A stretch of DNA of 64,000 bases, from the NCBI GenBank assembly GCA_964586025.1, contig CAZPGF010000003.1, positions 10,032 through 74,031 on the forward strand, in the 5' to 3' direction. Position 1 is the stretch's first letter. Every line of letters starts with the position of its first letter. The notes beneath the pieces are model-generated. The model saw only the letters and a list, made by a program, of their open reading frames with translations, did not search any database and was not told where the DNA came from. Below are positions 2,098 through 60,209 of the stretch, one piece after another. The DNA is from an uncultured Planctomycetales bacterium (lineage in GTDB: Bacteria; Planctomycetota; PLA2; JAEUHO01). Both the position numbers and the translations under genes were made by a program.

Positions 2098-2443
2098 GAG
2101 TCGCTCCGGGGTTGCGCGGGTCGGCGCGGAGGAGGGGCGCCCATCCTGCCGTGCGGGTCGCGACGATGCCCGTGCGGCCGGATCATCGGTCGATGCGCGG
2201 CGCTTATCCGCCTTCGTGACCGAACGGTGATGGCGGGGCGCGTCCTGTCGGCGTCGTGCGGTCGGACCTCGCCCACTCCGTGCGGTCCCCCGCGACCGGG
2301 CGCGGCGCGAGGCGGTCGAGCCACCGGGGCCACGACGCCCCGGGGCCCGGGCGCACGCGGCGCGGTACACTCGTCGCCCGGCCGCGGGACCCCACGCGCT
2401 CCGCCGAACGCCCGTCCCACACAGGCCCCCGAGGGTGGACGCC

Positions 2444-3445
2444 ATGACGAAAGTCCGTAGCGACGACGGCACGCGGCGTCGCGATCTCGCCGCCGCGCTG
2501 CCGTTCGAGCGGCCGATCCTCGAACTCGAGCGCCGCATCGAGGAGTTGAAGGCGCTGCCCGATGTCGCGCTCAACGGTGAACTGAAGCCCCTCGAGCAGA
2601 AGCGCGACCGGCTGCTCGACGACGTGTTCGGGCGGTTGACGCCTTGGGACGTCGTCCAGGTCGCCCGCCACCCGCAGCGCCCGCAGTTCTCCGACTACAT
2701 GAACGGCATGTGCGAGGACGTCGTGGTGCTCCATGGCGACCGCCTGTTCGGCGAGGACAAGGCGATCGCGACGGCGCTCGCCACGATCGGCCGCCACCGC
2801 GTGCTCCTGGTCGGACATCGCAAGGGGCAGGAAACGCAGGAGCGCCTCGCCTGCAACTTCGGCTGCGCCCATCCGGAGGGCTATCGCAAGGCCCTGTCGA
2901 AGATGCGTCTCGCCGAGCGATTCGGCCTGCCGATCGTCTCGTTGATCAACACGCCCGGCGCGTATCCCGGCGTCGCCGCCGAAGAGCGCGGGCAGGCGTG
3001 GGCGATCGCCGAGAACATCCTGGAGATGTCCCGGCTGCGTGTGCCGGTGGTCTGCGTCGTCATCGGCGAAGGCGGAAGCGGCGGCGCCCTCGGCATCGGC
3101 GTCGGCGATCGCGTGTTGATGCTGCGCTACGCGTACTACTCGGTGATTTCCCCCGAGGGTTGCGCCGCCATCCTCTGGAAGGACGGCTCGCGCGCGGCGG
3201 ACGCCGCCAAGGCGCTGCGCCTGACGAGCGACGACCTGTTGCGGCTGAAGGTCGTCGACGAGATCGTGCCCGAACCGCGCGGGGCCGCGCATCGCGACCC
3301 GACGACGATGGTCGCGACGCTGAAGGACACCCTGCTCCGCCACCTCGACGAACTCGTGGCCATGGATCCCGAGACGCGGCTGGCGGCTCGGTACGAACGG
3401 CTTCGCCGGCTCGGCAACGGCGTCGAGCCTCTTCCGCCGGCCTAG
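2444..3445 (+). CDS. accA: Acetyl-CoA carboxylase carboxyltransferase subunit alpha
   Basis: LPFERPILELERRIEEL, VIGEGGSGGALGIGVGDRVLMLRYAYYSVISPEGCAAILW and other AccA signatures. ATG at 2444 is preceded by GAGGG at SD-like spacing; the track starts at GTG 2435. Confidence 0.92.
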   Translation: MTKVRSDDGTRRRDLAAALPFERPILELERRIEELKALPDVALNGELKPLEQKRDRLLDDVFGRLTPWDVVQVARHPQRPQFSDYMNGMCEDVVVLHGDRLFGEDKAIATALATIGRHRVLLVGHRKGQETQERLACNFGCAHPEGYRKALSKMRLAERFGLPIVSLINTPGAYPGVAAEERGQAWAIAENILEMSRLRVPVVCVVIGEGGSGGALGIGVGDRVLMLRYAYYSVISPEGCAAILWKDGSRAADAAKALRLTSDDLLRLKVVDEIVPEPRGAAHRDPTTMVATLKDTLLRHLDELVAMDPETRLAARYERLRRLGNGVEPLPPA

Positions 3446-4222: not shown

Positions 4223-5664
4223 CCACGTCCCGCCTCATGTCGTTCGTTGCGTCGGTCGGTCTGGCGTCGGCGGCCGCGTTCGCCGTTCCGTTCGCTCCGA
4301 CCGCTCGCGCCGAGGATCCCGCACCGCCGTCGGCGCCGGCCGGCGCTTCCGTCGAACAGCTGATCGAGCGCCTCGGCGCGCCCGGATTCGACGAACGTGC
4401 CGCCGCGTCTCGCGAGTTGCAGCGCCTCGGGCGCTCCGCCGAACCGGCCCTTCGCCGTGCGCTCGACGCGACGAAGGATCCGGAAGTGCGCTGGCGTATC
4501 GAGCAACTCCTGCTCCGCCTCGACGGAACCGAGGCGCGCCCCCTCGGTGGCGCCCGACCCGAGTCCGACACCCGGCCCCGCGCCGAGGCCGACGGATCGG
4601 CCCGCCGCGACGTCGAGGAGGACGCGCCCGGAAAGGATCTCGGCGACGACTTCGGCGTCGAAGACCTCGGCCGCCTCATGCGCGAGCTGGAGGAGCGGAC
4701 GAAGCTCCTTCGCGAGCGCTGGCTCGAAGGGTGGAACCGTCCCGATGCGAACGGTGGGATCGGCGGCTGGCCGCGCTTCGACGCGTTTGGCGGGCTCGGC
4801 GAGCGGACGATCGAGGCGCAGGGACTCGTGTTGCGCAGCGACGGCTTCGGTCCGGTCGAGTTGAAGGTGAGCCGCCCCGATGCGCCGAATCCGGCCGATC
4901 GCGAGTTGACGTATCGCGGCTGGAGCCTCGACGACGTTCTCGCGAAGCATCCCGATCTCGCTCAGCACCCCGGCATGGACGAGTTGCGTCGCAAGGTCGC
5001 CGCGGAGCCGGTCGGACCCGGCGCCATGCTGCGCGACATGATGCGCGAGCATCTCGGTCAGTCGCCCGGGTTCGGCATCCAGATCCATCCCGGGATCTCC
5101 ACCGGAACCTCGATCGTGCAGGACGCGAACGGCGTCAAGGTGACGATCCGCACGCGGGGCGAGGACGGCGAGATCGAGGAGAAGACCTACCAGGGTAAGT
5201 CGATCGAGGAGTTGAAGGCCGCTCACCCCGAACTCGAATCGGCGCTGTCCGGCATCCGCCTGGAGTGGCGTGCGCCGCGCTTCTTCTTCGGTCCGAGCGT
5301 CGGTCAGCGTGACCGGCCCCGCCGTCGCGGCCTCGAGCCGTTGGATCCCGGACAGCCCGCCCCGATGACGCCCGGGACGCCGACCGGAGCGTCGTTCGGC
5401 GTCATCGTCGGACCGGTCAGCGAGAGCCTCGCGGCGCAGTTGAAGCTCGAGACGGGGCTCGGTGCGATCGTTCACGAGGTCGTCTCGGGATCCGCGGCGG
5501 AGCGACTCGGCGTCCGGCGTTTCGACGTCCTCCTGGCGGTCGACGGCGAGGTGTTGCACGGCTCCGGCGACGCGTCGGTCCGCCTTCGCCCGAAGGCCGA
5601 TCCGTCGCAACCGCTCGACCTCCTCGTGATCCGCGGCGGGGAGCGGGTTTCGCTGAAGCGCTGA
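4219..5664 (+). CDS. Secreted protein with C-terminal PDZ domain
   Basis: Signal peptide MTTSRLMSFVASVGLASAAAFA, helical repeat-like N-region, C-terminal PDZ-like segment FGVIVGPVSESLAAQLKLETGLGAIVHEVVSGSAAERLGVRRFDVLLAVDGE. Confidence 0.6.
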   Translation: MTTSRLMSFVASVGLASAAAFAVPFAPTARAEDPAPPSAPAGASVEQLIERLGAPGFDERAAASRELQRLGRSAEPALRRALDATKDPEVRWRIEQLLLRLDGTEARPLGGARPESDTRPRAEADGSARRDVEEDAPGKDLGDDFGVEDLGRLMRELEERTKLLRERWLEGWNRPDANGGIGGWPRFDAFGGLGERTIEAQGLVLRSDGFGPVELKVSRPDAPNPADRELTYRGWSLDDVLAKHPDLAQHPGMDELRRKVAAEPVGPGAMLRDMMREHLGQSPGFGIQIHPGISTGTSIVQDANGVKVTIRTRGEDGEIEEKTYQGKSIEELKAAHPELESALSGIRLEWRAPRFFFGPSVGQRDRPRRRGLEPLDPGQPAPMTPGTPTGASFGVIVGPVSESLAAQLKLETGLGAIVHEVVSGSAAERLGVRRFDVLLAVDGEVLHGSGDASVRLRPKADPSQPLDLLVIRGGERVSLKR

Positions 5665-5746
5665 TCGTTCACGCCCGCGTTGGGTGGGAGCGGCGTGCCG
5701 ACGCAGTCCGGTCGCAGGGAGGCGCGGGACGGAGTCCCTTCGCGGT

Positions 5747-7012
5747 TCAGTTGCCGACGTGGGCGGTGGCGTAGGCGACCTCGGGATCGTCGAACCGCGA
5801 TTGGTTCGCGAGGCGCTCGCCGACGACGACTCCCGCGCAGCCCATCAGGTAGCCGCCGCCGATCGACGGCAGCAGGACCAGTTCGCCGGCGCGGATGCGG
5901 TGGTCGTCGCGCACGACGACGCGTTCGACGCGTCCTTCCGCATCGAGCACGCGCTCCATCGTGCCCGCGCGCAGGACGTGATCGAGCGTGACGAGGTTGC
6001 TCGCCGCGGAGATGTTGCCGTAGCGGTAGATGGTGCGACCGACGTGCTCGATCGGGACGCGCAGTTCCTTCGCCAGGCCGTCGAGGATCCGTCCGTTGGC
6101 TTGATGGGGGACGAGGCGGACGCGCGCGAGCGTCTCGATCAGGCCCGGCGTTCCGGACTTCAGATCCCCCTCGTCGTAGCCGAGAGCGCGAGCGACGCAG
6201 TTCGCCATGCGCTTCACCGCCATGCGCAGAACGGAGGGACCTCCCTCCATCTCGACGAGGGACTGCTCGACGAGTTGCACACCGGCCTGAACCTGCTTGT
6301 CGGGGAACGCCCCGATGCCCAGCGGCACGTTGCTGTTCGCGAGGTGGATGTTGCGCGCGCTGAACTCGAAACCGAGCTGGGGCGGCAGAATGCCGTCCGA
6401 GCCGCCGCGATCGCCGCGCGAGACGACCGCCGCCCCCGCACCGTCGCCGAACAGGATCGCGGTCAGGGGATCGTGGAAGTTCAGCGCGCGGCTGGCGGTC
6501 TCGGCGCCGATCACCAGCACGTGTTCGTACACGCCCGAGGCGACGAGGCCGTACGCCATGCCGATGCCGTAGATCGAGCCGGCGCACGCGGCCATCAGCA
6601 TCATGACGCCGGCGTTGGAGCAGCCGAGTTCGTGCGCGAGGCGGCAGTGGTCGCCCGGGATCATCTCGCTGGGCGTGAACGTCGCGTACGCCACGAGTCC
6701 GACGTCCTTCGGGTCCACCCCGGCCGATGCGAGGGCCCGTTCGGCCGCGACCCGCGCGAGGTCGGAGGTCCGCACGCCCGGCGCGGCGTAGCGCCGTTCG
6801 TGGATGTGGGTCATCTGATCCACCCACACGCCGAAGTCGCCCGAGCGCGCCGCGTCGTAGCCGCGGACGATCGTCTCCAGCGTCCGGTTGTCGACGACCC
6901 CCGGAGGCAGGAAGGAGCCCGTACCGGAGAGGCGAACCAGGGGGTTCAGTTCGGTGCGCACGAAGGGACTCCGCGTTCCGGCAGGGCCTCGGCCGCGAGC
7001 GGCCCGGCGCAT
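5747..7012 (-). CDS. 3-oxoacyl-ACP synthase III family (FabH/KAS III-like) with short insertions
   Basis: KAS III-like motifs: GTGSFLPP, SEMIPGDHCRLAHELGC, VPHQANGRILDGLAKEL, GNISAASNLVTLDHVL, GGGYLMGCAG. The exact start is uncertain; the track offers 7051 and the Met at 7012 is used here. Confidence 0.75.
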   Translation of the reverse strand: MRRAARGRGPAGTRSPFVRTELNPLVRLSGTGSFLPPGVVDNRTLETIVRGYDAARSGDFGVWVDQMTHIHERRYAAPGVRTSDLARVAAERALASAGVDPKDVGLVAYATFTPSEMIPGDHCRLAHELGCSNAGVMMLMAACAGSIYGIGMAYGLVASGVYEHVLVIGAETASRALNFHDPLTAILFGDGAGAAVVSRGDRGGSDGILPPQLGFEFSARNIHLANSNVPLGIGAFPDKQVQAGVQLVEQSLVEMEGGPSVLRMAVKRMANCVARALGYDEGDLKSGTPGLIETLARVRLVPHQANGRILDGLAKELRVPIEHVGRTIYRYGNISAASNLVTLDHVLRAGTMERVLDAEGRVERVVVRDDHRIRAGELVLLPSIGGGYLMGCAGVVVGERLANQSRFDDPEVAYATAHVGN

Positions 7013-7107
7013 GGTGCCCGGGAGCGGCGGCGCTGGCGAGGCAGGCGCCATACCGACCGTCCCCTCGTACGACTAGACTCGCCGCCCCGCGGGGGGTCGG
7101 GACGCAC

Positions 7108-10100
7108 ATGGATTCGCCGACGCCTCGCGAACTCGCTCCCGACGCGGCGTTGCCGGCCGCGCCGCGGCTGCTGTTGACGGGAGCGGCGGGCACCGGAAAG
7201 ACGTGGCGCGCGCTCGGCGCGGTTCGCGACATCGCGACCCGCCGCGCCCCGCACGGTGGCGCCGCGGAGCGTCCGGGAGCCGCGCTGCTCGTGCTCCCGA
7301 CGTTCGCCGACGTGCAGCACGCGCGGCGGATCGCGCTCTCGCGGTGGGATGCGCGGGGTCTGCTCGACGAGGTGTTCGCCACGTTCACGGGAGCCGGGGA
7401 GCGTTTCCTCGATCGGTTCCGCGTGGACGTGCTTCCGTCGGCAGCCGCACGCGACCGCCTGCTCGTCGCAGCGCTCGCGGACGTCGATGCGCGCGTCTTC
7501 GCCGCGGTCGCCGGCGCCGCGGCGTTTCGAGCCCGCCTGCTGCGACTGATCAAGGAACTGAAGCAGAGCGGCGATGAACCGGCGGAGATCGCCGATCGAC
7601 TCGAGAACGCGGCGGACGCGTTGTCGGTGCCCGCTCGCGAGCGTCTCACGGCGTTCGTCGCCGTGTTTCGTGCCGTCCACCGCCGCCTCGCCGACACGGG
7701 TCTTTCCGATCACGAGGACGTGCTGCGCGCGCTCGCCCGGCGGCTGGAGGACCGCCCGCCTCGCTCGCCCCCGCGTCGTCTCGTCTTCGACGGCTTCGAG
7801 GACTTCACGCCCATCGAAGAGCGGATCCTCGATCGCCTCTCGTCGAGCGTCGTGGACGCCGGCGGGCAGGTGATCGTCACCTGTCCGTTCGACCCGCGAC
7901 GCGCCGCCCTGTTCGTGGCGACGGGCCCGTGGCGTGAGCGACGTCTCGCCGCGGGCTTCGAGGAGTGGCGCGTGATTCCGCGGGCCGATGCGCGTCCCGC
8001 TCCACTCGCGCGTCTCGCGCGCGAGCTGTTCAGCGAGGATCCGGGTGAGGCGCCGACGCCGGGAGGCTCCCGCGTGGCGTGGATCCTCGGCGGTGACGAC
8101 GAAGACGAGGCCGAGGCGATCGCGCGTCACGTCCGTCGCGCGGTGCTCGGCGCGGAGATCCGGGTCGGGGACCGTCCCGCTCGATGGCACGACGTCGCGA
8201 TCGTCGTGCCGGACCTCGGGAGGGACGCGAGTCGTCTGGCTTCGGCCCTCCGCCGGATCGGTGTGCCGGTCCGCGCCGAGGCGGTCGCACCATCGCTCGG
8301 ACGCACCCCCCTCGTTCGCGCGCTCCGCGGCGCGCTCGATGTCGTCGCGGGCGACATCGGGCCCGGCGAGTTCGATCCGTTCGCCCTGCATGCGTGGCTC
8401 GCCTGGTGCGTCGCGGCGGAAGGCGACGTCGAGGCGCGCCGTGCGCTCGATGCCTTCGAGGTGTGCCATCGGACCGACGGCGCTCCTCGGGACTTCCGCG
8501 CGTTCCTCGCCGACGCGCCGGACGCGATCGCACCGTTCGTCGTTCGCCTGGAGTCGGCGAGGGTGGCCCTCCACGACGCGCGCGGCGTGGAGGCGTTCGA
8601 AGGCCTCGCCGAGGCCATGCCGGACCTCGCGCCCCTGCCCGCGCCGAGCGCGCGCGACGACGCGGGGCGCCCGAGCGACGCCCGCCGGGACGCGCTGGTC
8701 GCCGCCGCGCATGCGGCGTCGGCGCGACTCGTGCGCGTGCTTTCCGGTCTCGCCGACGCGACGCATCGCACGGGCGTCGGTCCCGCATCGATCGCCGAGG
8801 CGGTGGCGGACCTGCTCGCGCATGCCGACGCGCTCTCGTTCGAAGCGCCCGATCGTCGTTTGGACGCGGTGTCCGTGATCGACATGGAGACGGCGCGCTT
8901 TCGAGAACCCGCGCTCGTCGTCGTAGCCGGGCTCGAAGCGGGGCGCGTGCCCCGGGGATCGGGCGAGGACCCGCTGCTCGCCGACGCCGATCGCGAGGCG
9001 CTGGTCGAACGGGATCCGCGACTGCGACTTCCGCGCGCCCGCGATCGCGACGCGCGCGAGCGCCGCCTCCTCTACTCGGCGATGACGTCCGCGCGCCACA
9101 CCCTCTGGCTCGCGCGGCCGACGATGGACGCCCGTGGCGACCAGGTCCTCTCGGCCCTGCCGATGCGCGCTCTCGAGCGCTGCGTCACGCCGACCATCCT
9201 CCACGACACGCGCGCCCCCGGCTCGCTCGCTCCGTCGCGCGATCTCGTCGCCAGCGAGCGCGATCTCGTCCACATCGCCGCCCATCCGTCGACGCCGCGG
9301 CCGCTCGCCGAGGCGCTCGCCCGGGCGCTCCCGACCACGGCGACGGCGCTCGAACGAGGTCGCGCGAGGCGGCCGACGAGGCTCCACGTCCCCCCGCCGG
9401 TCGCCGCGCGCCTCGCGTCGGGGTTCGACGTGATGAGCCCCAGCGAACTGGACGTGGCGCATCGATGTCGTGCGCAGTTCGCCTTCCGGCACGTGCTGCG
9501 CGTGCCGGAGGACGACCTGTCGTTCGAGCCGCGCGAGGTCGAGCCCGCCGAGGAGGGGCAACTGCTCCACGCGGCGTTTCGCACGGCCCTCCTGCGCGGC
9601 GATCGCACGGCCCTCGAGATCGCTCGCGACGTGCTGGCCGAGGCCGGCATCGAATCATCCGACGAGTCGTTGCTCGAGGCCGAATTGGTGCGTGCGATCG
9701 AGCTGTTGAGGCGGCGCGAGGCGGCGCTCCCGGCCGCCTGGCGCGCCGACCCGGCGTTTCTCGAACGATCGTTCGGTGCGGCCGACGAGATCGCCCTCGA
9801 CGACGGAGCGACCCGCCTCCTCTTGAAGGGGCGCATCGATCGCGTCGACGTCCGATCGGAGCGCGGAACGCCCCCGGTCGCCATCGTCGTCGACTACAAG
9901 CGCTCTCCCACCACCGTGGAGTCGTCGGCCAGCAGCGAGCGCAACGGTCTCGGCCTGCAACTCCGCCTCTATGCGCTCGCGGTCGAGCGGCTCGCACGGG
10001 TCCGCGTCGTCGGTCTCGAATGGGTCGCGTCGTTGGCCCGGTTGCGGCGCGGTGTCTACGACCAGCAGGCCCCACCCGATGTCGCATGGCGGCGCGAGGA

Positions 10101-41930: not shown

Positions 41931-42758
41931 ATGTCGAACACCCCGACTCTCCCGACCGAGCCCGCCCCGACGGGCGCACCGCGCCTCGGGTTCTGGGCGC
42001 GGACGACCGACCGCGTCCACCGTTTCCTGCTGCGGGTCCTGTACCTGCTCGCCCCGATCGCGGCGACCGGCCTGGTGCTGTTGATCGTGTGGTGGCAGCG
42101 GGACTGGGACACCGTCCGACAGGTCACCTACGCGGGCGCCGCGAGCCTGTTCGGGTTGGGAACGAGCGTCGTCTTCGGCAAGGCGGTGCTCCACGACGCG
42201 AAGTGGCTGACCCTCAGCACGTGGGAACTCGCGTTCGTCGTGATGTGGGTGAACGCCGCCAGCTCGTACTTCTACACATGGAACTTCGATCTGCTCGAAC
42301 GCCTGCCGAAGATCGGAAGGGCCCTGCACGCCGCGCGCGAGGACGCGCGCCTCGCGCTCGATCATCGGCGCTGGATCCGTCGCCTGAGCACGATCGGCGT
42401 CGGCGCGTTCGTCATCAGTCCGCTGCCCGGATCGGGTTCGCTGGCCGGGTCCATCATGGGACAGATGATCGGACTCTCGCGCCGCGCGACCGCGCTGACG
42501 GTCACGTGCGCCGGAGCGATCGTCTGCGTGTCCTACGCGGTGCTCGCTCGGCGGGTCGAGGGATTGCTGAAGGCGGTGCCGTGGTGGGTCAATGCTGGCG
42601 GCGTGCTGATCCTGCTGATCTCGATCTGGTTCGTGATGCGCTGGATGCGCCGCACCGCCGCGCGGGTCGCCGAACAGGCGCGGCGCGAGCAGGCCGCCGC
42701 GGCGAGCGATCCCACGTCGCCGGCGCCCGATCCGAGCGTGCCGTCGTCCGTCACCTGA
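41931..42758 (+). CDS. Hypothetical integral membrane protein
   Basis: MSNTPTLPTEPAP... with 5-6 hydrophobic helices. Start set by frame arithmetic; the upstream part of the track ORF is antisense to wecB. Confidence 0.55.
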   Translation: MSNTPTLPTEPAPTGAPRLGFWARTTDRVHRFLLRVLYLLAPIAATGLVLLIVWWQRDWDTVRQVTYAGAASLFGLGTSVVFGKAVLHDAKWLTLSTWELAFVVMWVNAASSYFYTWNFDLLERLPKIGRALHAAREDARLALDHRRWIRRLSTIGVGAFVISPLPGSGSLAGSIMGQMIGLSRRATALTVTCAGAIVCVSYAVLARRVEGLLKAVPWWVNAGGVLILLISIWFVMRWMRRTAARVAEQARREQAAAASDPTSPAPDPSVPSSVT

Positions 42759-43887
42759 CGGTCGCCGCGTCGGCCTGTTGCTCGGCGATCCAGGCGTCGA
42801 TCTCGCGGCGGAGTTCGACGACGAGGTCGGCCTCGTCCACCTTGCGGATCATCCGACTGCCGCGGTAGATGAAGCCGAAGCCGCGTCCGGCGCTGATCGA
42901 GACGTCCGCCTCGGCGGCCTCGCCCGGTCCGTTCACGATGCAGCCCATCACCGCGACGCGGCAGGGATAGGTCAGGCCCTTCGTGGCCTCCTCGACCAGT
43001 TTGGTCAATCCGATCAGGTCCACCTCGGCGCGGCCGCAGGACGGGCACGCGTACACGTCGAACGTCGGTTGGCGAAGACCCAACTGCTGGAGCAGCATGT
43101 GGCCGACCTTCACCTCGTCGCGGTTGTCGCCCGTGATTGAGATGCGGATCGTGTCGCCGATCCCCTCCGTCAACAGGATCCCGAGCGCCGCGCTGCTCTT
43201 GATCGTCGCGGGGAGCAGGCTCCCGGCGTGGGTCACGCCGAGGTGCAGGGGATAGTCGCAGACGGCCGCGAGCCGGCGATTCGCCTCGACGGTCAGTTCG
43301 ATCGTGTGCGCCTTGATCGAGATCACGGTGTCGTGGAAGTCGAGCGACTCGAGGATTTCGACATGATGCAGGGCCTCGCGCACGCACAGATCGACGATGT
43401 CCTCGTCGTCGTCGACGACGGAGAGCCCCTTGCGCTCACGGATCGATCCGCTGTTGACGCCGATGCGCATCGCGACGCCCCGATCGCGCGCCGCGCGGAC
43501 GACCCTCTCGACCTCGTCGCGGCGTCCGATGTTGCCGGGATTGATCCGCACCTTGTCGACGCCCTGTGCGATCGCCTCCAGGGCGAGCGGCGCCGAGAAG
43601 TGGATGTCGGCGACCACGGGGATCGTCACGCGACGCTTGATCTCCCCGAGCGCCTGGGCCTGCTTCATCGACGGCACGCTTAGGCGGACGAGTTCGCACC
43701 CGGTCGCTTCGAGGCCGATGATCTCGTCGAAGGTCTTGTGGACATCGGCGGTGTCGCCCTTCGTCATCGTCTGGACGCGAATCGGGTGGGCCGACCCGAG
43801 TTCGAGGTGACCCACGCGAACCGAGCGCGTGGTGCGGCGAGGTCGGAGGAAGCTCATCGGCGGCATCGTAATCGTTCCGCGAGTCAC
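42751..43887 (-). CDS. ispG: 4-hydroxy-3-methylbut-2-enyl diphosphate synthase (GcpE)
   Basis: VQTMTKGDTADV...GCELVRLSVP...INPGNIG... and C-terminal CPSCGR / GCIVNGPGE Fe-S motifs. Start may be the internal MPPMSF Met. Confidence 0.92.
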   Translation of the reverse strand: MTRGTITMPPMSFLRPRRTTRSVRVGHLELGSAHPIRVQTMTKGDTADVHKTFDEIIGLEATGCELVRLSVPSMKQAQALGEIKRRVTIPVVADIHFSAPLALEAIAQGVDKVRINPGNIGRRDEVERVVRAARDRGVAMRIGVNSGSIRERKGLSVVDDDEDIVDLCVREALHHVEILESLDFHDTVISIKAHTIELTVEANRRLAAVCDYPLHLGVTHAGSLLPATIKSSAALGILLTEGIGDTIRISITGDNRDEVKVGHMLLQQLGLRQPTFDVYACPSCGRAEVDLIGLTKLVEEATKGLTYPCRVAVMGCIVNGPGEAAEADVSISAGRGFGFIYRGSRMIRKVDEADLVVELRREIDAWIAEQQADAATVR

Positions 43888-43894
43888 TGACCCA

Positions 43895-44050
43895 ACGGAG
43901 GAGCGCCTTCGGGGATCGGGGCGATCGGCGCGCCGTGCGGGGCCCGTGCGGACGACCGCCGATTGCCCGCCACGGCGAGTTCCCGCTCCCCGGCCGCGAA
44001 CCCGGTCCGGCGGTGAACTCGAACGATCGGCATCTCGTCGGCGCTCGGGA
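43895..44050 (+). repeat. Copy c3 of repeat family E (plus orientation, 5'-truncated and diverged)
   Basis: ...ggggatcggggcgatcgg...ccacggcgagttcccgctccccggccgcgaacccggtccggcggtgaactcgaacgatcggca, alignable to c2. Lies in the ispG/tetR divergent intergenic region. Confidence 0.7.
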
Positions 44051-44174
44051 TGGTCGTCGGAGGCGCGGGCGAGGACTCGCCGCGGAGCCCCACCTTGACC
44101 CGTCGTGCGTGCGGCCTACCGTCGGGGCGCGGGGGACCGCGTCGTCGATCGCGACCCTTCCCGACGGAGGCGTC

Positions 44175-44828
44175 ATGGCGCAAAGGGGTTCGACGAGGGA
44201 GCGCATCCTCGACGCGGCGGAGGGCCTGCTCGCGCGCCGAGGACTCGGTGCGACGAGCATCCGCCTGATCACCGCGACGGCGGGGGTCAACCTCGCCGCG
44301 GTGAACTACCACTTCGGCACGAAGGAGGCCCTCGTCGAGGCCGTGTTCCAGCGGCGATTGACCCCGCTCAACGCGGAGCGTCTGCGCCGGCTCGCTGCGC
44401 TGCCGGAGGACCCGCCCCGCGTCCGGCCGATCCTCGATGCCTTCCTGGGGCCGGCGCTCGAGATGCTCGCGAGCGGCGACGAGCGCGATCGGCAGTTCAT
44501 CCGACTGCTCGGTCGCAGCCACGCCGACACGGACGGCGGCACCGACCGTTTCATGGACCGCCTCTACGAGCCGGTGCTGCGTCGTTTCAAGGCGGCGCTC
44601 GCGCGCGCCTTGCCGGAACTCTCCCCGGCGGAGTTGACGTGGCGTCTGCACTTCGTCGTCGGTGTGGTGAGTTACGCGATCGCCGGGCGGGACGCCATCG
44701 GCATCATCGGCCCGGCCGAGGCGAGCGATCCCGCGGCGCTGACGCGGCGCCTCGTTCCGTTCCTCGCCGGCGCGCTGCGCTCGCCCCTCCCGGAAGCGCC
44801 TCCCGACGGACACGAGCGCGTCGCGTAG
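44175..44828 (+). CDS. TetR-family transcriptional regulator
   Basis: RERILDAAEGLLARRGLGATSIRLITATAGVNLAAVNYHFGTKEAL HTH. Start set by frame arithmetic. Confidence 0.85.
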   Translation: MAQRGSTRERILDAAEGLLARRGLGATSIRLITATAGVNLAAVNYHFGTKEALVEAVFQRRLTPLNAERLRRLAALPEDPPRVRPILDAFLGPALEMLASGDERDRQFIRLLGRSHADTDGGTDRFMDRLYEPVLRRFKAALARALPELSPAELTWRLHFVVGVVSYAIAGRDAIGIIGPAEASDPAALTRRLVPFLAGALRSPLPEAPPDGHERVA

Positions 44829-44904: not shown

Positions 44905-47900
44905 TCACCGGCAACTCGCGACCCACGCCGCTAGCGCCGCGCCCAGGCGGACGATGCCGGCGGCCTCGACGTCCTCGGGGCGGTCGTCGGGGCGGTTCAT
45001 GATCGCGTAGTCGCTCGCCCAGAGCGAGACGGCGGGGACTCCGGCCTCGTGGAACGGCCAGTGGTCGGAGCCGTGAGCGAACGCGAAGCGGTCGATGTCG
45101 CGACCGATCTCGATGCCCGCGGCCTTCAGCGCGGCGGCGACGCCGGATGCGAGTTCGGTGTGGATCGAGGCGCCGATCACGTGGGTCGGCTTCGACGAGC
45201 CCCGTCCGACGCTGTCGACGTTGACGACGGCCCGCACGTCGAAACGGTCGCGCAGCGCATCGACGAGACGGCGGCTTCCGAGCAGTCCCCACTCCTCGGC
45301 GTCGGGGAATGCGAACAGGATGTCCACGGCGGGGGGCGGCGACTCGGCCACGCGCCTCGCGACATCGAGCAGGCACGCGACGCCGCTCGCGTTGTCGTCG
45401 GCGCCGGGATGGATCGGTCCGCTCTCGTTCGCGCCGGGCACGGCGTCGAGATGGGCCATCAGGAGCAGCGCCGGGCGACGCGCCTCGGCCGGCGCGGCGC
45501 TCGACGCGAGGCGGAACACGAGGTTCCGTCCGGGCCGCATCGTGCGCTGGACCTCGAACTCGATGACGACCTCCTCGATCCACGCGAACGGGTCGTCGGC
45601 CTGGTCGGGACTGGCCGGCATCGCGTCGCGACGCGCGAGCAGGATCGGGATCGAGAGGGCCTCCGCCGACCCGAGGTTCGCGCGCGCGCGGCGTCCGGAA
45701 AGCCACGTTTCGAGCGGGCCGGTGTCGATGCGGCGGCCGTCGCGACCGACCTTGTTGCGATCCGCCACCGCGGCCGGCGTCAGCGCGTCGTTGCGATCGA
45801 CGAGCGGAGCGAGTTCCGCGTACGCGGCGTCTTCCACCACGTAGACGATCGCGCGGGCGCCGCGCGTCGCGCGCTCGCGCGCGTCGTGCCAGAGGGCGGC
45901 GGCGTCCCCCTCGGTCCAGCGCACGATCGAAACCTCGTCTTGGCCGCCGCCGACGGCCTGCCACGACCCGTCCTTCGACGACGCGCTGAAGAAGACCGGC
46001 CGGATCGCATCGCTTTCGACCTCGCCCTGGCGGTGTCCGCCGGTGTAGCGGAAAGTCACCGGCGTCGAGGTCCACGACGCGAGGACGTCGAACGACGCCA
46101 TCGCGTCGGACGCGCTGGGGGGATCGAGGGGCGGGATCGGCATGCGCGCTGCGACCCACGCTTCGATCGCGGTACGCTCCGGCGCGCCCGGCCCGCGCTC
46201 GGTCGCCGCCAGTCGACGCACGACCTCGGCCGCGTCGTCCTCGGCGCGGCGCTCCGGCGCGCGCAGGTCGAACGTCAGGGATCTCGACGGCGGACGTTCC
46301 ACGGCGCGGCGTTCGGGCACGCCGTTCTCGAAACGCACCCAGGTGTCCCAGCCGTAGAAGGGAACGTAGCCGGCGCGCCGTGCCGCGGCGGGAGATGCCG
46401 CGACGTACCACGTCCGGGGATGGCCGTTCCACGCGACCGTCGCGAGCAGCGACGACGCGGCGCCCGCGAGGCGGCGCCCCGCGATCGGCGCGACGACCTC
46501 ACCCTCGTTCGCCATCCAGAGCACGATGGCGGGGCCATCGTGCTGCGCCAGGTCGAAGTCCGGTCCGACGACCGGCCAGCCGGTGGTCGACTCCAACTTC
46601 TTCACGAGCCCGGCGAAGGCGCTCTCGTCCCCGCGCACGACGATCGCGCCCTCGCCCGGCGCGCGCAACGTCGTCTGCAGGCAGAGCGGCAACTCGTCCC
46701 GGGGGATCGCCTTGGCGACGTGCCAGGCCGGATCGAGTTCGACGCGCGTCGGGGGACCCGGCACGCGAACGCGCGTGCTGCCCGAGTCGCCCGAGAGCAC
46801 GACGACGCCTTCGCGGGTCCACGTCGAGGCACCCGTGCCGCCCGTCACGACGACCGGAAGCCGACCTCCGAACCGCCCCCCGGGGGTCTGCTCCTCGACG
46901 ACGACCTCGACCTCGTGCTCGCCCTCGGGCGCGTCGGCGCCGAGCGGCGCGGCCGTCGCGAACGTGAGGCGGTAGCGCGGAAGCCCGGGGCGTTCGAGCC
47001 ACGGCGAGATCGACGCGAACGGGTCGGTTCCGTCGTCGCCGCGCCACGCCTCCGCGAAGTCCTCCCACGCGACGATGTGCCCGACATGGGATTGGGTGAA
47101 CGTCGCCAGGCGCGACCACCACGCCTCGTCCGAACCGCTCGCGCGGCGCAGCAGGTGGAAGACCATGCTGCCCTTGCCGTACCCCACGTCGTTGTCGGCG
47201 TCCTCGGTCTTCGTCAGGAAGGCGCGCAGCGGCACGTCGGCGTCGCCGTGGACGCGGATCGCGAACCGCTCCAGCACGCCGCGTCGTGCGTCGATCGCCG
47301 CGGTGGACTCCGGACCGCCGCCGGCGAGTTCGACCGCGTAGTAGTTCGAGAGGTAGGTCGTGATCGCCTCGCACCAGTTGCCACGCGCGAAATCGACGAA
47401 CAGCCCGTTCCCGTACCAGCCGTGGACGTACTCGTGGTCCAGGTAGCCGGGCGGGATCGAGCCCTCCCGCAATGCCTTGGCCGAGACGTACTCGATCACC
47501 CGATCGCCGAGCAGCGTGAACGACGGCATGCCGTAGCCGGACTGGAAGAAGTTCTCGACGATGTCGAACTTCGGGTGCGGGTAGGCCCCGAGGAGCGGCG
47601 TGTACCGCCGCACGGTGTCCGCCGCGGCGTCGAGCCAGAGCGTCGAGAACTCTTGATGGCGAGGATAGAAGTACGTCGAGAGCGAGACGCCATCGACGAC
47701 CCGCGTCGACACGACGTAGTCGCCCGCCGAGAGCGAGACGCTGTCCGTGGCGATCGCCGCGGGGAAGGTGGAGCGGAGCCACACGGTCTCCTCGGCCCCC
47801 TCTCCGACGACCGGTTCGAGCGCGTCGCCCGCCGGATCGAACCCCGCGACGCGGAGCGTTTCGCGGGCGGGTACGCCCCCCTGGCACGCGACGACCACGC

Positions 47901-48414
47901 CGTCCGGAGCGAACACCTCGACGTCGACGAGGGCGAGGGGCGAGGAGGCCGCCCACGGGACCCAGCGCGATCCGCCGCTCAAGAACACGCCGTGGGGCTC
48001 GATCAGGCCCTTCGTCGAGTCGCCCGCGACCCATGCGAGGTCGTCCGCCGCGCGGACCTCGTCGTGGAGCCGTCCCCGGTACGCGATGCGCAGGCGGTGG
48101 TCGCCCGCGGGGACCGCGATCCGAAACGCTCCCTTCCCGTCGCGGGTCGGCGCCGCGATCGCCTCTTCGTCCAAGGCGACGCCGACGATCGCGAGTTCGG
48201 CCGCGAGGTCGAACTCGAGGTCGCCCGCCTCGGGAGCGCGCACCGAGAGATCGGCCCGTGCGATCAGGCGCCCGCGCGGCGGGTCGAGCCGGACGACGAG
48301 TGCGATGCGCTCCACGCGCGGCGCCGCGCCGTCGGCGCGAACGTCGCGACTCGCGGCGACGATCAGCAGGAACAGGAGCAGCACGAGCGGACGGACGGCG
48401 CGGAGTCGGTGCAT
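44905..48414 (-). CDS. Secreted dual-peptidase protein: M1 (gluzincin aminopeptidase-like) domain fused to a C-terminal M28 peptidase domain
   Basis: Signal peptide MHRLRAVRPLVLLLFLLIVAASRDVRA. HEYVHGWYGNG (HEXXH-X-W) plus a downstream Glu in the M1 region. M28 motifs HLDAVPG...GADDNASGVACLLDVARR...DAEEWGLLGSRRLV...HGSDHWPF. Confidence 0.8.
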   Translation of the reverse strand: MHRLRAVRPLVLLLFLLIVAASRDVRADGAAPRVERIALVVRLDPPRGRLIARADLSVRAPEAGDLEFDLAAELAIVGVALDEEAIAAPTRDGKGAFRIAVPAGDHRLRIAYRGRLHDEVRAADDLAWVAGDSTKGLIEPHGVFLSGGSRWVPWAASSPLALVDVEVFAPDGVVVACQGGVPARETLRVAGFDPAGDALEPVVGEGAEETVWLRSTFPAAIATDSVSLSAGDYVVSTRVVDGVSLSTYFYPRHQEFSTLWLDAAADTVRRYTPLLGAYPHPKFDIVENFFQSGYGMPSFTLLGDRVIEYVSAKALREGSIPPGYLDHEYVHGWYGNGLFVDFARGNWCEAITTYLSNYYAVELAGGGPESTAAIDARRGVLERFAIRVHGDADVPLRAFLTKTEDADNDVGYGKGSMVFHLLRRASGSDEAWWSRLATFTQSHVGHIVAWEDFAEAWRGDDGTDPFASISPWLERPGLPRYRLTFATAAPLGADAPEGEHEVEVVVEEQTPGGRFGGRLPVVVTGGTGASTWTREGVVVLSGDSGSTRVRVPGPPTRVELDPAWHVAKAIPRDELPLCLQTTLRAPGEGAIVVRGDESAFAGLVKKLESTTGWPVVGPDFDLAQHDGPAIVLWMANEGEVVAPIAGRRLAGAASSLLATVAWNGHPRTWYVAASPAAARRAGYVPFYGWDTWVRFENGVPERRAVERPPSRSLTFDLRAPERRAEDDAAEVVRRLAATERGPGAPERTAIEAWVAARMPIPPLDPPSASDAMASFDVLASWTSTPVTFRYTGGHRQGEVESDAIRPVFFSASSKDGSWQAVGGGQDEVSIVRWTEGDAAALWHDARERATRGARAIVYVVEDAAYAELAPLVDRNDALTPAAVADRNKVGRDGRRIDTGPLETWLSGRRARANLGSAEALSIPILLARRDAMPASPDQADDPFAWIEEVVIEFEVQRTMRPGRNLVFRLASSAAPAEARRPALLLMAHLDAVPGANESGPIHPGADDNASGVACLLDVARRVAESPPPAVDILFAFPDAEEWGLLGSRRLVDALRDRFDVRAVVNVDSVGRGSSKPTHVIGASIHTELASGVAAALKAAGIEIGRDIDRFAFAHGSDHWPFHEAGVPAVSLWASDYAIMNRPDDRPEDVEAAGIVRLGAALAAWVASCR

Positions 48415-48509
48415 CCCGCAAGGGTACGACCGACGGATCCGAACCGCGCGGCCTGGCGCAGCCTCCGACCGCGCGTGGGCCGAGGCGCCCGCCCGCGTAC
48501 CGTGAGCGC

Positions 48510-50249
48510 GTGCGGATCCTCGGCGTCACCGGCCCCAAGCACGACGCCGCCGCGGCGCTGTTCGTCGATGGCGAACTCGTCGCCGCCGCCGAGGAGGAGC
48601 GCTTCGTCCGCGAGAAGCACGCGCTGCGCCGGCCGGCGCATGCGGCGGTGCGCTTCGTGCTCGACGCGGCCGGCCTGAAGCCGACCGACATCGATGCGAT
48701 CGCCTATCCGTGGAGCGAGCGCACCTGGCGCGAACGGCGCGGGCCGCACCTCCGACGCATGCTGCCGATCGACGGGCGCACCGCGCTCAAGGGCTACGCG
48801 AAGACGATCGTGCGGTTCCGGCGTCTGCGCGCGCGGGTGCGCGAAGCGCTCGACGACATCGGCGTGCCGTGGCGCGATCGGCCGTGGCACGAGGTGCCGC
48901 ACCACGACGCGCACGCCGCATCGGCGTTCCTGCTGGCGGGATTCCCGTCCTGTGCGGTTTTGACGGTGGACGGGCTGGGCGAACTGATCACCACGCAGGT
49001 CGGAGCCTACGAGGACGGGCGGTACGCCATCCTCCATCGCGAGACGATGCCGCACTCCCTCGGCTGCTTCTACTCCGCGATGACGGAGTACCTGGGCTTC
49101 CGATTCAACGACGGTGAGTACAAGTTGATGGGGATGGCGCCGTACGGCGACCCGTCGCGCGCGAACCTCGCCGGCATCGCCTGGATCGACGATCGCGGTG
49201 CTTTCCGGGTCGATCCGCGTGCGGTGTGGGTCTCGCACCGTCGTCGCGTGGACGGTCGCCCGTTCGGCCGACGGCTCGTCGAACGATTCGGGCCGCCTCG
49301 GCGGGGCGATGGCCTGGACGCGCCCTATCCCGACATCGCCGCGGCGACGCAACGCCTGTTCGAGGACGCCGTCCTTCGCCTGGTCGAGGGACCGCTCGCC
49401 GCGCCGCTGGCGCGCACGGGGCGGTTGGCCTTCGCCGGCGGGTCGGCCTTGAACGTCGCGCTGAACCGTCGGCTCGTCGCGCACCCGTCGATCGATCGCC
49501 TCTACGTTCCGCCCGCCGCCAACGATGCGGGCACGGCGGTCGGCGCCGCGGCCCACGTCGCGTGGCGCGCGGGCGACCGCGTGCGGCCATGGACCTCCGC
49601 CGCGCTCGGTCCGGCGTACGACGACGACGCCATTCGCGACGCCCTCGAACGCCGCGGTCACGCCGCGGCGCGCCGCACGGCCCTCGTCGACGACATCGCC
49701 GATCGTCTCGCGGCGGGCGATGTCGTCGGGTGGTTCCAGGGGCGCATGGAGATGGGGCCGCGCGCCCTCGGTCGGCGATCGATCCTCGCCCACCCGGCGC
49801 TCCCCGGCATGAGCGACCGCGTGAACCGCGTCGTCAAGCACCGCGAGACGTGGCGGCCCTTCTGTCCGTCGATTCTCGCCGAGCGTGCCGACGAGATCCT
49901 CGTCGGCTCGCATCCGGCGCCGCACATGACGATCGCATTCGATGTCCGCGAAGACTGGCGCACGCGGATTCCCGAAGTCGTGCATGTCGATGGCACGTGC
50001 CGCCCGCAGGTCGTCTCGCGCGACGACGATCCGCTCTTCCATGCGCTGATCGCCGCGTTCGCGGCACGCACTGGCCTGCCGGTGCTGCTGAACACCTCGC
50101 TGAATCGCCGCGGCGAACCGATCGTTGCGAGTCCCGACGACGCGCTGACGATGTGGGCCGACGGGGGGCTCGACGTGCTGGCGATGGGGGAGCGCGTCCT
50201 CCTCCGTCGCATCGGTTCAGACCCGGCCATCCCCCCGCCCGTCCGATAG
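48510..50249 (+). CDS. Carbamoyltransferase (NodU/CmcH/TobZ family)
   Basis: VRILGVTGPKHDAAAALFVDGELVAAAEEERF...HHDAHAASAF... with a C-terminal YrdC/Kae1-like region. GTG 48510 set by frame arithmetic. Confidence 0.85.
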   Translation: MRILGVTGPKHDAAAALFVDGELVAAAEEERFVREKHALRRPAHAAVRFVLDAAGLKPTDIDAIAYPWSERTWRERRGPHLRRMLPIDGRTALKGYAKTIVRFRRLRARVREALDDIGVPWRDRPWHEVPHHDAHAASAFLLAGFPSCAVLTVDGLGELITTQVGAYEDGRYAILHRETMPHSLGCFYSAMTEYLGFRFNDGEYKLMGMAPYGDPSRANLAGIAWIDDRGAFRVDPRAVWVSHRRRVDGRPFGRRLVERFGPPRRGDGLDAPYPDIAAATQRLFEDAVLRLVEGPLAAPLARTGRLAFAGGSALNVALNRRLVAHPSIDRLYVPPAANDAGTAVGAAAHVAWRAGDRVRPWTSAALGPAYDDDAIRDALERRGHAAARRTALVDDIADRLAAGDVVGWFQGRMEMGPRALGRRSILAHPALPGMSDRVNRVVKHRETWRPFCPSILAERADEILVGSHPAPHMTIAFDVREDWRTRIPEVVHVDGTCRPQVVSRDDDPLFHALIAAFAARTGLPVLLNTSLNRRGEPIVASPDDALTMWADGGLDVLAMGERVLLRRIGSDPAIPPPVR

Positions 50250-50440: not shown

Positions 50441-51067
50441 TCAGCGAGTGACGACGCGGTAGTAGCGCGCACCCTCGACGTTCGCGCACGGCCGGCAGAG
50501 CGGGCCGTCGGGCGTGAGGACCTCGCGCGCGTTGATGACCTCCTCCCCGCAGCGGACGCAATCGACACGGACGTGCGGTCGTGCGCGCAACTCGGCGGCC
50601 GACGGGTGGAGCGCGACCTCCAAGGCCGCGAGCAGATCGTTCGCGGGCATCCGCTGGTAGCCGACGAGCATGGCCTGCCAGCGACCGGGCGCGTCGGGGT
50701 CGGCGTGGGCCGCCGCCGCCGCGCGGACACCGGCCTTCGGCGCGAGGCGCACGGCGCGCTCCGTGCGAACGTCGGCGAACGTCGCCGCGATCTTGCCGAC
50801 GTCGAGGATCCGCAGGGTTCGCGCGCTCACCCGCACGCCCGCCGCCGCCTCGATCCCGCTGACGAAGCAGCCGTCCGTCTCGGCGATCACCAGCAGGCGC
50901 TTGTCGTCGCGCGGCACCTCGAGGTCGAGCCACCCCGCCGCGGCCCACGCCATCCGCGCGCCGAGCACCTGCCGCGGGCAGAGGTGACGATGCGTCTCGG
51001 CGCCCTTCGCGAGGATCTCCGCGCGCTGGTCCGGCGCAGGGCCGTCGGAGAGTCGGGGCTCGTCCAT
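50441..51067 (-). CDS. FmdE/FwdE-family protein with C-terminal zinc ribbon
   Basis: HLCPRQVLGARMAWAAAGWLD...DGCFVSGIEAAAG and a C-terminal CVRCGEE...CRPC. Confidence 0.75.
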   Translation of the reverse strand: MDEPRLSDGPAPDQRAEILAKGAETHRHLCPRQVLGARMAWAAAGWLDLEVPRDDKRLLVIAETDGCFVSGIEAAAGVRVSARTLRILDVGKIAATFADVRTERAVRLAPKAGVRAAAAAHADPDAPGRWQAMLVGYQRMPANDLLAALEVALHPSAAELRARPHVRVDCVRCGEEVINAREVLTPDGPLCRPCANVEGARYYRVVTR

Positions 51068-59090: not shown

Positions 59091-59369
59091 GGGCAGAAGG
59101 TCCGAAGAAATCCGGTACCAGCCGGCTCAAATTCGATTGACGGATCGGCTCCGGCTTGGGACAACGCCCGCGCAACGTCGGAGGCGCGCCAAGGCAGGGA
59201 GGCGCCGCCGATGCGTCGGCGTGGGCCGGCGGCTCCGGGTGCTCGCGCCGCCGCAGCGGTGCGATGTCCGGCGCGGGCGCACAGGGCAGGCAGTCGCCTC
59301 CATCCGGTTAGGATGCGGGCCATTCGGGAGGCGGGCCCCTCGGGAGGGGGCCGGTCCGGGAGACATCGC

Positions 59370-60209
59370 ATGAGCACCCTCGCCAAGATCCTCGTCGTCG
59401 TGAACCTCCTGCTCGGAGTCGGGGTTCTCGCGAGCGTCGGGAGCTTCCTCGGTCAGCAGGACACGTGGAAGCACAAGCACGACAGGGAGGTCGCGGAGCG
59501 CAAGTTGGAGCGCGAGAGCCTTCAACAGCAACTCGACCAGGAAAAGACCTTCGCCCGCACGCAGGAAACGAACCTGCGCACGGCGAACGCCGCGAAGGAC
59601 AAGGCCGAGAGCAACGCCCGGGCCCTCCAGGCGGAGAACGAGAACCTGAAGGCCGCGTACAACGCGCTCGCCGAGAACCACGGCATCATGGCGCGCACGG
59701 TCGATCGCGTGACGAACACGCTCAACGCGAACCGCGACCTGATCACCACGCAGGAAGAGACGCTGCGCCAGCAGCGCGAGCAGATCTCCTCGCTGCAGGA
59801 CAGCCGCAACCAGGGCTCGCAGATCCTCAGCGCGAAGGAGTTGGCGCTCGATCGGGCGCAGGCCCAGATCAAGGATCTCGAGCAGAAGATCGCCGACGCG
59901 AACGAGAAGATCCGCACCCAGGAGTTCTCGCTGCGCGTGTTCCGCGAGCGCTTCCCCGGCGTCGAGGTCGCGTCGCAGCCGCCGCACAGCGGCAAGGTCC
60001 TGAACGTCGCCGGCGCGAGCGCGATCGTGATCTCGCTCGGCGCCGAGGACGGCGTCAAGCCCGGCTTCCTCTACATGCTGTCGCGCGGCGGCACCTACCT
60101 CGGCGATCTCCAGATCGACGACGTCCAGGCCAAGCAGTCGTCCGGCTTCCTCGTGAACGGCGCGAAGAGCCCGATCCAGTCCGGCGACGACGTTCACAAC
60201 GCCCGCTAG
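59370..60209 (+). CDS. Membrane-anchored coiled-coil protein with C-terminal beta-rich domain
   Basis: N-terminal TM segment ILVVVNLLLGVGVLASVG, about 170 aa of heptad-like Q/E/K/L-rich sequence, C-terminal GKVLNVAGASAIVISLGAEDGVKPGFLYML. Lower GC than surroundings. Start set by frame arithmetic. Confidence 0.6.
   Translation: MSTLAKILVVVNLLLGVGVLASVGSFLGQQDTWKHKHDREVAERKLERESLQQQLDQEKTFARTQETNLRTANAAKDKAESNARALQAENENLKAAYNALAENHGIMARTVDRVTNTLNANRDLITTQEETLRQQREQISSLQDSRNQGSQILSAKELALDRAQAQIKDLEQKIADANEKIRTQEFSLRVFRERFPGVEVASQPPHSGKVLNVAGASAIVISLGAEDGVKPGFLYMLSRGGTYLGDLQIDDVQAKQSSGFLVNGAKSPIQSGDDVHNAR

Follow-up and report, generated by a model that had tools for sequence, protein, structure and literature searches.

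Few zinc exopeptidases have been studied as thoroughly as those of the M1 and M28 families, and both families have motifs that are treated as defining. In canonical M1 enzymes the Glu of the GXMEN motif anchors the free alpha-amino group of the substrate, a Glu or Gln (Glu121 of PepN; within 'QFEAT' in puromycin-sensitive aminopeptidase, PSA) supplies a second N-terminal anchor, and a helical C-terminal lid is common, if not universal. In M28 enzymes the co-catalytic metal ligands are His97, Asp117, Glu152, Asp179 and His256 (numbering of the Vibrio aminopeptidase, AAP), with Glu151 as general base. Here we describe a gene from an uncultured Planctomycetales bacterium in which these two folds are joined in a single chain. 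It lies on a stretch of 64,000 nucleotides (contig CAZPGF010000003.1, positions 10,032 to 74,031 of the forward strand), referred to below as the window, and all coordinates are those of the window. Our reading – to which we attach a probability of about 0.6 – is that the gene product is an exported metallopeptidase with two sites, which breaks down peptides outside the cytoplasm and belongs to a widespread, uncharacterised family.

Set against the M1 aminopeptidases (E. coli PepN, aminopeptidase N, ERAP1, PSA and tricorn factor F3), the protein carries Pro where GXMEN has Glu, and a zinc site with a spacing of X17 rather than X18; it is without the helical C-terminal lid, is predicted to be exported, and has an alpha/beta domain and an M28 module appended. 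The two-domain M1 peptidase of Deinococcus radiodurans (PDB 6A8Z/6IFF) is, by comparison, a stand-alone protein with no M28 fusion. With the PA-domain M28 enzymes (YwaD of B. subtilis, 6HC6; Aneurinibacillus AM-1, 2EK8) it shares the M28 fold and an insert at the same place, and the His, Asp, Glu-Glu and Asp motifs of these enzymes, of Vibrio/Aeromonas AAP and of Streptomyces SGAP are all kept. Unlike any of them it has Asn1140 in place of the fifth-ligand His (Y-H-x-x-x-D), and its M28 module is the C-terminal part of a far larger protein.

Two further groups deserve mention. In published structures of glutaminyl cyclases the Asp/Glu/His site is kept and the His/Asp site lost. Measured against M28-fold members of that group (for example from Fimbriiglobus ruber, 7D1B), the present protein keeps the His988/Asp1067 site and loses a His of the other; this is the opposite of what the cyclases show, and a glutaminyl cyclase assignment for the M28 half was rejected. 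AplP and NosP are M1-family leader peptidases that combine endo- and aminopeptidase activity (PMC13039773). They are a precedent for an M1-type site that cuts internally and then trims, but the analogy is functional only: both are cytoplasmic, single-module M1 proteins tied to the maturation of ribosomally synthesised and post-translationally modified peptides, and no genes for such peptides lie near the peptidase locus in the window.

Architecture of the fused peptidase

The gene and the parts of its product are as follows.

44905..48414, minus strand: peptidase gene, complete coding sequence; single open reading frame of 1169 amino acids plus stop codon
48331..48414, minus strand: signal peptide, residues 1-28, read from the sequence; probable cleavage after VRA
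47665..48318, minus strand: M1-type N-terminal beta domain, residues 33-250
46990..47664, minus strand: M1-type thermolysin-like catalytic domain, residues 251-475
46735..46974, minus strand: beta-sandwich like M1 domain III, residues 481-560 (AlphaFold2 secondary structure; aligns with aminopeptidase N to about 524)
46267..46647, minus strand: small alpha/beta domain, where the helical M1 lid would be, residues 590-716
45997..46257, minus strand: N-terminal helices and strands of the M28 module, residues 720-806 (AlphaFold2 secondary structure; profile alignment)
45625..45933, minus strand: probable PA-like alpha/beta insert, residues 828-930 (AlphaFold2 secondary structure; position as in 2EK8 and YwaD)
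44908..45573, minus strand: M28 catalytic domain, residues 948-1169, containing H988, D1007, E1040, E1041 and D1067

An earlier, sequence-only reading of this DNA had proposed a single secreted polypeptide behind one signal peptide, and this is borne out: the frame extends over 1169 codons, with no internal stop or frame change across the 3.5 kb of 44905-48414. Its guanine-plus-cytosine (GC) content by codon position (0.74/0.53/0.91) is of coding type and matches that of other genes in the window. Long open frames occur on both strands because the window has a G+C content of 72%; one of these, an overlapping plus-strand frame at 45049-48678 (1209 codons; 0.89/0.56/0.74), was rejected as a gene and is a high-GC antisense shadow. 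The identical protein (P0001) is recorded in NCBI, on a 76.6-kb contig. Its nearest named relatives, 60-64% identical, belong to metagenome-assembled genomes of Planctomycetota, where they carry the label 'M20/M25/M40 family metallo-hydrolase'.

The N-terminus, MHRLRAVRPLVLLLFLLIVAASRDVRA/DG, follows the n-h-c layout of Sec signal peptides, and a lipobox Cys is absent. A similar hydrophobic, signal-peptide-like N-terminus is found in 62 of the 69 relatives that start with Met; in the structure model the segment is of low confidence, with a helix at 7-21. The product, of about 125 kDa, is most likely exported, being either periplasmic or extracellular.

To define the domains we collected relatives, 117 of which entered a family alignment (77 of them M28-bearing), and on that alignment built an AlphaFold2 model, taking the domain limits from its secondary structure together with matches to known families. 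The full-length model is confident (mean predicted local distance difference test score 91.8; predicted template modelling score 0.84) and speaks for domains held in a fixed assembly. It contains the M1 fold, as a beta N-domain followed by a thermolysin-like catalytic domain, and the alpha/beta fold of M28 in the C-terminal module. A Foldseek search of the PDB with the model returned M1 aminopeptidases at E values of about 1e-23 over some 600 columns, four-domain M1 enzymes among them, and no solved chain spanning both halves. The family profile matches aminopeptidase N (8T41) at 4e-21 and the PA-bearing M28 enzymes at 2e-35 (2EK8) and 6e-32 (YwaD, 6HC6), profile positions 700-1026 aligning to almost the whole of the latter two chains.

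The C-terminal module is also recognised directly: Pfam M28 (PF04389) covers residues 979-1164 with 110.4 bits against a cut-off of 21.3 (E 1.2e-31). The M28 part had been put at the C-terminal 300 or so amino acids; the module is indeed there, but it spans about 450 (720-1169) once the PA-like insert, for which Pfam gives no PA hit in the query, is counted. Ahead of it, the long all-helical region (an ERAP1_C-like lid) sought after residue 560 is absent from the model. Its place is taken by the alpha/beta domain, which passes directly into the N-terminal segment of the M28 module. This middle domain has no match in sequence searches of Pfam, NCBIfam or the PDB, and its assignment, from fold comparison only, is weak. 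Across the 34 closest relatives, identity to the query is highest in the catalytic domains, at 61% (M1) and 49% (M28), as against 24-39% in the accessory parts.

Two conserved but atypical active sites

The motifs quoted from the sequence at the outset are all present – HEYVHGWYGNG at 327-337, DDNASG at 1006-1011, DAEEWGLLGS at 1038-1047 and HGSDHWPF at 1114-1121 – and the residues on which the argument turns are these.

47368..47436, minus strand: M1 zinc site H327-E328-Y-V-H331...E349, of the form HEXXH-X17-E (column counts)
47179..47181, minus strand: Tyr412 in G-Y-G-K-G, counterpart of the M1 catalytic Tyr (Y in 116/117 relatives)
47521..47538, minus strand: G293-Y-G-M-P297-S298, counterpart of GXMEN (profile alignment to PSA)
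44995..44997, minus strand: Asn1140, at the fifth zinc ligand position (His256 of AAP, Y-H-x-x-x-D-T; family alignment)

In the M1 half the zinc-binding and catalytic residues are close to invariant: H327 and E328 occur in 116 of the 117 relatives, H331 and E349 in every one. The spacing to E349, seventeen residues after the second His, is one short of the canonical X18. Tyr412 lines up with the Tyr of 'Y-A/S-K-G' in aminopeptidase N and PSA. The situation differs at the substrate-anchoring motif, where the profile alignment places G-(Y294)-G295-M-P297-S opposite the G-A-M-E-N of PSA: G293 and G295 are invariant across the family, and the Glu is replaced by Pro297. As to the second anchor, the Glu of the PSA 'QFEAT' falls opposite Phe144, in a weakly aligned stretch of the profile alignment; acidic residues that might stand in for an anchor are E287, conserved in 96 of 117, and D224, a position that is D or E in 109.

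To call the M1 half an 'aminopeptidase' is therefore an assumption, and with the GXMEN Glu and the helical lid both missing the name is not established. The original assignment, 'M1 aminopeptidase', survives in its HEXXH...E and catalytic Tyr and fails in the lost Glu and lid, and in a Pfam M1 score below threshold. The missing Glu and lid suggest that the M1 half does not engage a free N-terminus as canonical enzymes do. Substrates are probably recognised differently; the module might, for example, be an oligopeptidase, an endopeptidase or an exopeptidase of relaxed specificity.

The M28 half shows a comparable mixture. Numbering was checked against the alignment to AAP, which reproduced His97, Asp117 and Asp179. 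The ligands H988, D1007, E1041 and D1067, together with the general base E1040, are each kept in 76-77 of the 77 M28-bearing relatives (E1040, within D-A-E-E-W-G, in 76). The pairwise alignments to AAP and YwaD end just ahead of the fifth-ligand motif, and the assignment of Asn1140 comes from the family alignment, in which PDZ-bearing relatives read DYHRPSDT opposite I-M-N1140-R-P-D-D of the query. This column is N in 48 of the 77, D in 14 and H in 13, so that the last His ligand is gone in 64 and the column is N, D or H in 75; all three residues are able to bind metal. Distant stand-alone M28 relatives retain Y-H, and Asn occurs among them only in apparent fragments of the fused clade. The invariance of the remaining catalytic residues, with a variable column limited to N, D and H, argues that the metal site has been modified and is not dead. 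The label 'M28 aminopeptidase' accordingly keeps its Pfam hit, four ligands and catalytic Glu, but Asn1140 means that this is not a textbook di-zinc site. HGSDHWPF, offered as an M28 motif, is the common 'SDH' motif (S228-D229-H230 of AAP) and is not a metal-ligand motif.

Recurrence of the fusion and competing readings

A fusion of this kind had been called uncommon. It is unusual among M1 enzymes but it is not rare: both modules are present in 77 of the 117 aligned relatives, and the fused forms are spread over Planctomycetota, Thermodesulfobacteriota, Gammaproteobacteria, Nitrospirota, Eisenbacteria and others. More than 515 loci of the M1 variant came out of a scan that took one genome for each species, from which 80 species-representative loci were kept for inspection. 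The orthologous fusions proposed as a search target were found there, as a single open reading frame at 19 of the 80 loci; at 58 the M1 gene stands alone, with no M28 gene within the flanks (up to 6 kb on each side). Among 1.84 billion cluster representatives there are 816 matches at E <=1e-30, and about 84 of the best 150 reach a length of at least 900 amino acids. In a rough neighbour-joining tree of the M1 part, fused forms occupy several large clades and M1-only forms others. The M1-M28 fusion is thus a populated, widespread and uncharacterised bacterial family.

Two loci illustrate how the modules may be arranged otherwise. L072 (5485-9076) is a true split, in which a 766-amino-acid M1 gene ends after the alpha/beta domain and is followed, with a small overlap, by an M28-PDZ gene; both products begin with a signal-peptide-like N-terminus of their own. 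L015 (5797-9217) is a fused M1-M28-PDZ gene with a frameshift within the alpha/beta domain, probably a sequencing error, given that the second frame continues that domain. A third locus, L064 from Eisenbacteria, has two M1-variant paralogues a few kb apart (250-3114 and 5059-7908); the second is followed by an M28 frame in another reading frame, an arrangement ambiguous between split and frameshift.

Some family members carry in addition a PDZ domain at the C-terminus, a ChaN/Tiki-like domain at the N-terminus or a PD40 propeller, modules (PDZ, PD40 propeller, ChaN) that are typical of periplasmic substrate-handling proteins. The largest relatives (L079 3184-9231, P0082, P0084 and P0097), of 1834-2015 amino acids, place a ChaN/Tiki-like (Cofac_haem_bdg) domain before M1-M28-PDZ. 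A Planctomycetota relative of up to 1481 amino acids (L003 5896-10341) has PD40 (TolB-like propeller) repeats after M28.

What we observe is the architecture and its homologies, catalytic residues that are conserved, an N-terminus of export type and a fusion that recurs; that each site is active, in which order they act and what the protein does for the cell we infer. Recurrence of the fusion, the existence of a split-gene version and the strong conservation of both catalytic cores argue that the two modules cooperate and that selection acts on both. Under the two-site reading, the first module would be a divergent mono-zinc gluzincin of M1 type, composed of N-terminal beta domain, catalytic domain and beta-sandwich and devoid of a lid, and the second a metallopeptidase of the M28 co-catalytic type with a PA-like insert. 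The two sites would act in sequence on one substrate pool: the M1 half may cut oligopeptides internally and the M28 half would trim N-terminal residues. Peptides would in this way be degraded step by step outside the cytoplasm, either for nutrition or for turnover of envelope proteins.

Several points weigh against this reading. The query scores below the Pfam M1 threshold (PF01433; 13.2 bits against a cut-off of 27.7), and for that reason its M1 homology rests on profile and fold evidence. Relatives P0045, P0061, P0080, P0093 and P0072 do exceed the threshold, at 31.8-55.4 bits, and by this link the N-terminal module is a divergent M1 branch by homology. The Pro at the GXMEN Glu is shared by 111 of the 117 relatives, including those that have no M28 module, and the fifth M28 metal ligand of the query is Asn, not His; activity could be altered or reduced at either site. 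Our literature search turned up no paper on an M1-M28 fusion or on M1 enzymes with Pro in GXMEN, and no family member that has been characterised. Gene context, finally, gives no functional hint, the conserved neighbours, IspG and TetR, being housekeeping genes.

The foremost rival holds that only one module is catalytic, the other being a pseudo-peptidase that binds substrate or serves as a lid. The most likely candidate is the M28 half, which has lost its Zn1 His and might cap the M1 site in lieu of the helical domain. We consider this unlikely: the other four M28 ligands and the catalytic Glu are retained almost without exception, which is unexpected for a pseudo-enzyme, the variable column is restricted to residues capable of binding metal, and in conservation the M28 catalytic domain ranks second among the parts of the chain. 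The same elements can be combined into a more specific proposal that we regard as equally doubtful, namely that the M28 module replaces the lost M1 lid so that both sites open onto a shared chamber. There, an M1 oligo- or endopeptidase deprived of its anchor (Glu to Pro) would hand fragments directly to an Asn-containing, possibly mononuclear or mixed-metal M28 centre.

A second rival accepts that both modules are active and assigns them a specific task in envelope processing or quality control, for example the trimming of exported proteins or the degradation of misfolded periplasmic ones. The PDZ and PD40 variants of the family speak for such a role, which we nonetheless rate slightly below the pseudo-peptidase. 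That the fusion is an artefact of assembly or sequencing which joined two adjacent genes we reject: the source is probably a metagenome-assembled genome, L015 has a frameshift inside the gene and L072 truly has two genes, but the query frame is unbroken, the 19 single-frame loci are independent and lie in different phyla, the alpha/beta domain is continuous with the M28 N-terminal segment in a confident model, and the frameshift of L015 breaks a fused gene and does not make one.

Neither fold is new, databases already contain the architecture under automatically assigned names, and there is no sign of new chemistry. What the family offers is a broad set of exported proteins that join the M1 and M28 folds, with both sites deviating from motifs usually treated as defining. 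If both are active, the GXMEN Glu and the last M28 His ligand would be shown to be dispensable, and the family would represent a natural case of substrate hand-over between two different metallopeptidase sites in one chain. There is a consequence for automated annotation, in which entries are named 'M20/M25/M40 family metallo-hydrolase', 'M28 family peptidase' or 'aminopeptidase N', each name covering one module only. The family may also bear on the use of extracellular peptides by Planctomycetota and other environmental bacteria. It merits the attention of an enzymologist; it neither opens nor resolves a long-standing question.

Genomic neighbourhood

The neighbours of the gene are those first described, a carbamoyltransferase gene diverging from it and a TetR regulator converging on it. 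The carbamoyltransferase frame (48033-50249, plus strand) lies upstream and its N-terminal domain starts only at residue 161; the start is likely the GTG near 48508 (V-R-I-L-G-V-T), leaving about 93 bp between the divergent genes. Downstream, the TetR frame (43935-44828, plus strand) ends at 44828 and has a 90-residue extension ahead of its DNA-binding domain. Since the orthologue in L081 is 217 amino acids long, the true start is probably near 44175. No terminator-like hairpin was found between the convergent peptidase and TetR genes (fold z-score 0.06).

Beyond TetR lies IspG (GcpE; 42751-43887, minus strand), and the surrounding stretch is of housekeeping type, its genes including an AddA-like helicase-nuclease, ProRS, FtsH, IspG, FtsY, MoeA and MreB. 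IspG is near the peptidase gene in two related genomes as well (L081 and L083), with a fatty-acid desaturase recurring nearby; the IspG neighbourhood is lineage-level synteny and not a functional cluster. Regulation by the neighbouring TetR was considered and is unsupported: in one relative TetR keeps its place with IspG although another gene stands between it and the peptidase, and a second is without TetR.

Two features elsewhere in the window are recorded for completeness. ARAGORN calls a tRNA-Ser(gct) of 90 nucleotides at 59553-59642 (minus strand), inside a frame at 59211-60209 (plus strand) with high GC at third codon positions; the call is probably a false positive, because Rfam finds no tRNA there at gathering score. 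A small frame at 50441-51067 (minus strand) has an FmdE-like domain together with a zinc finger of DksA/TraR type, and adjoins a gene for a 907-amino-acid O-antigen-ligase-like TPR protein.

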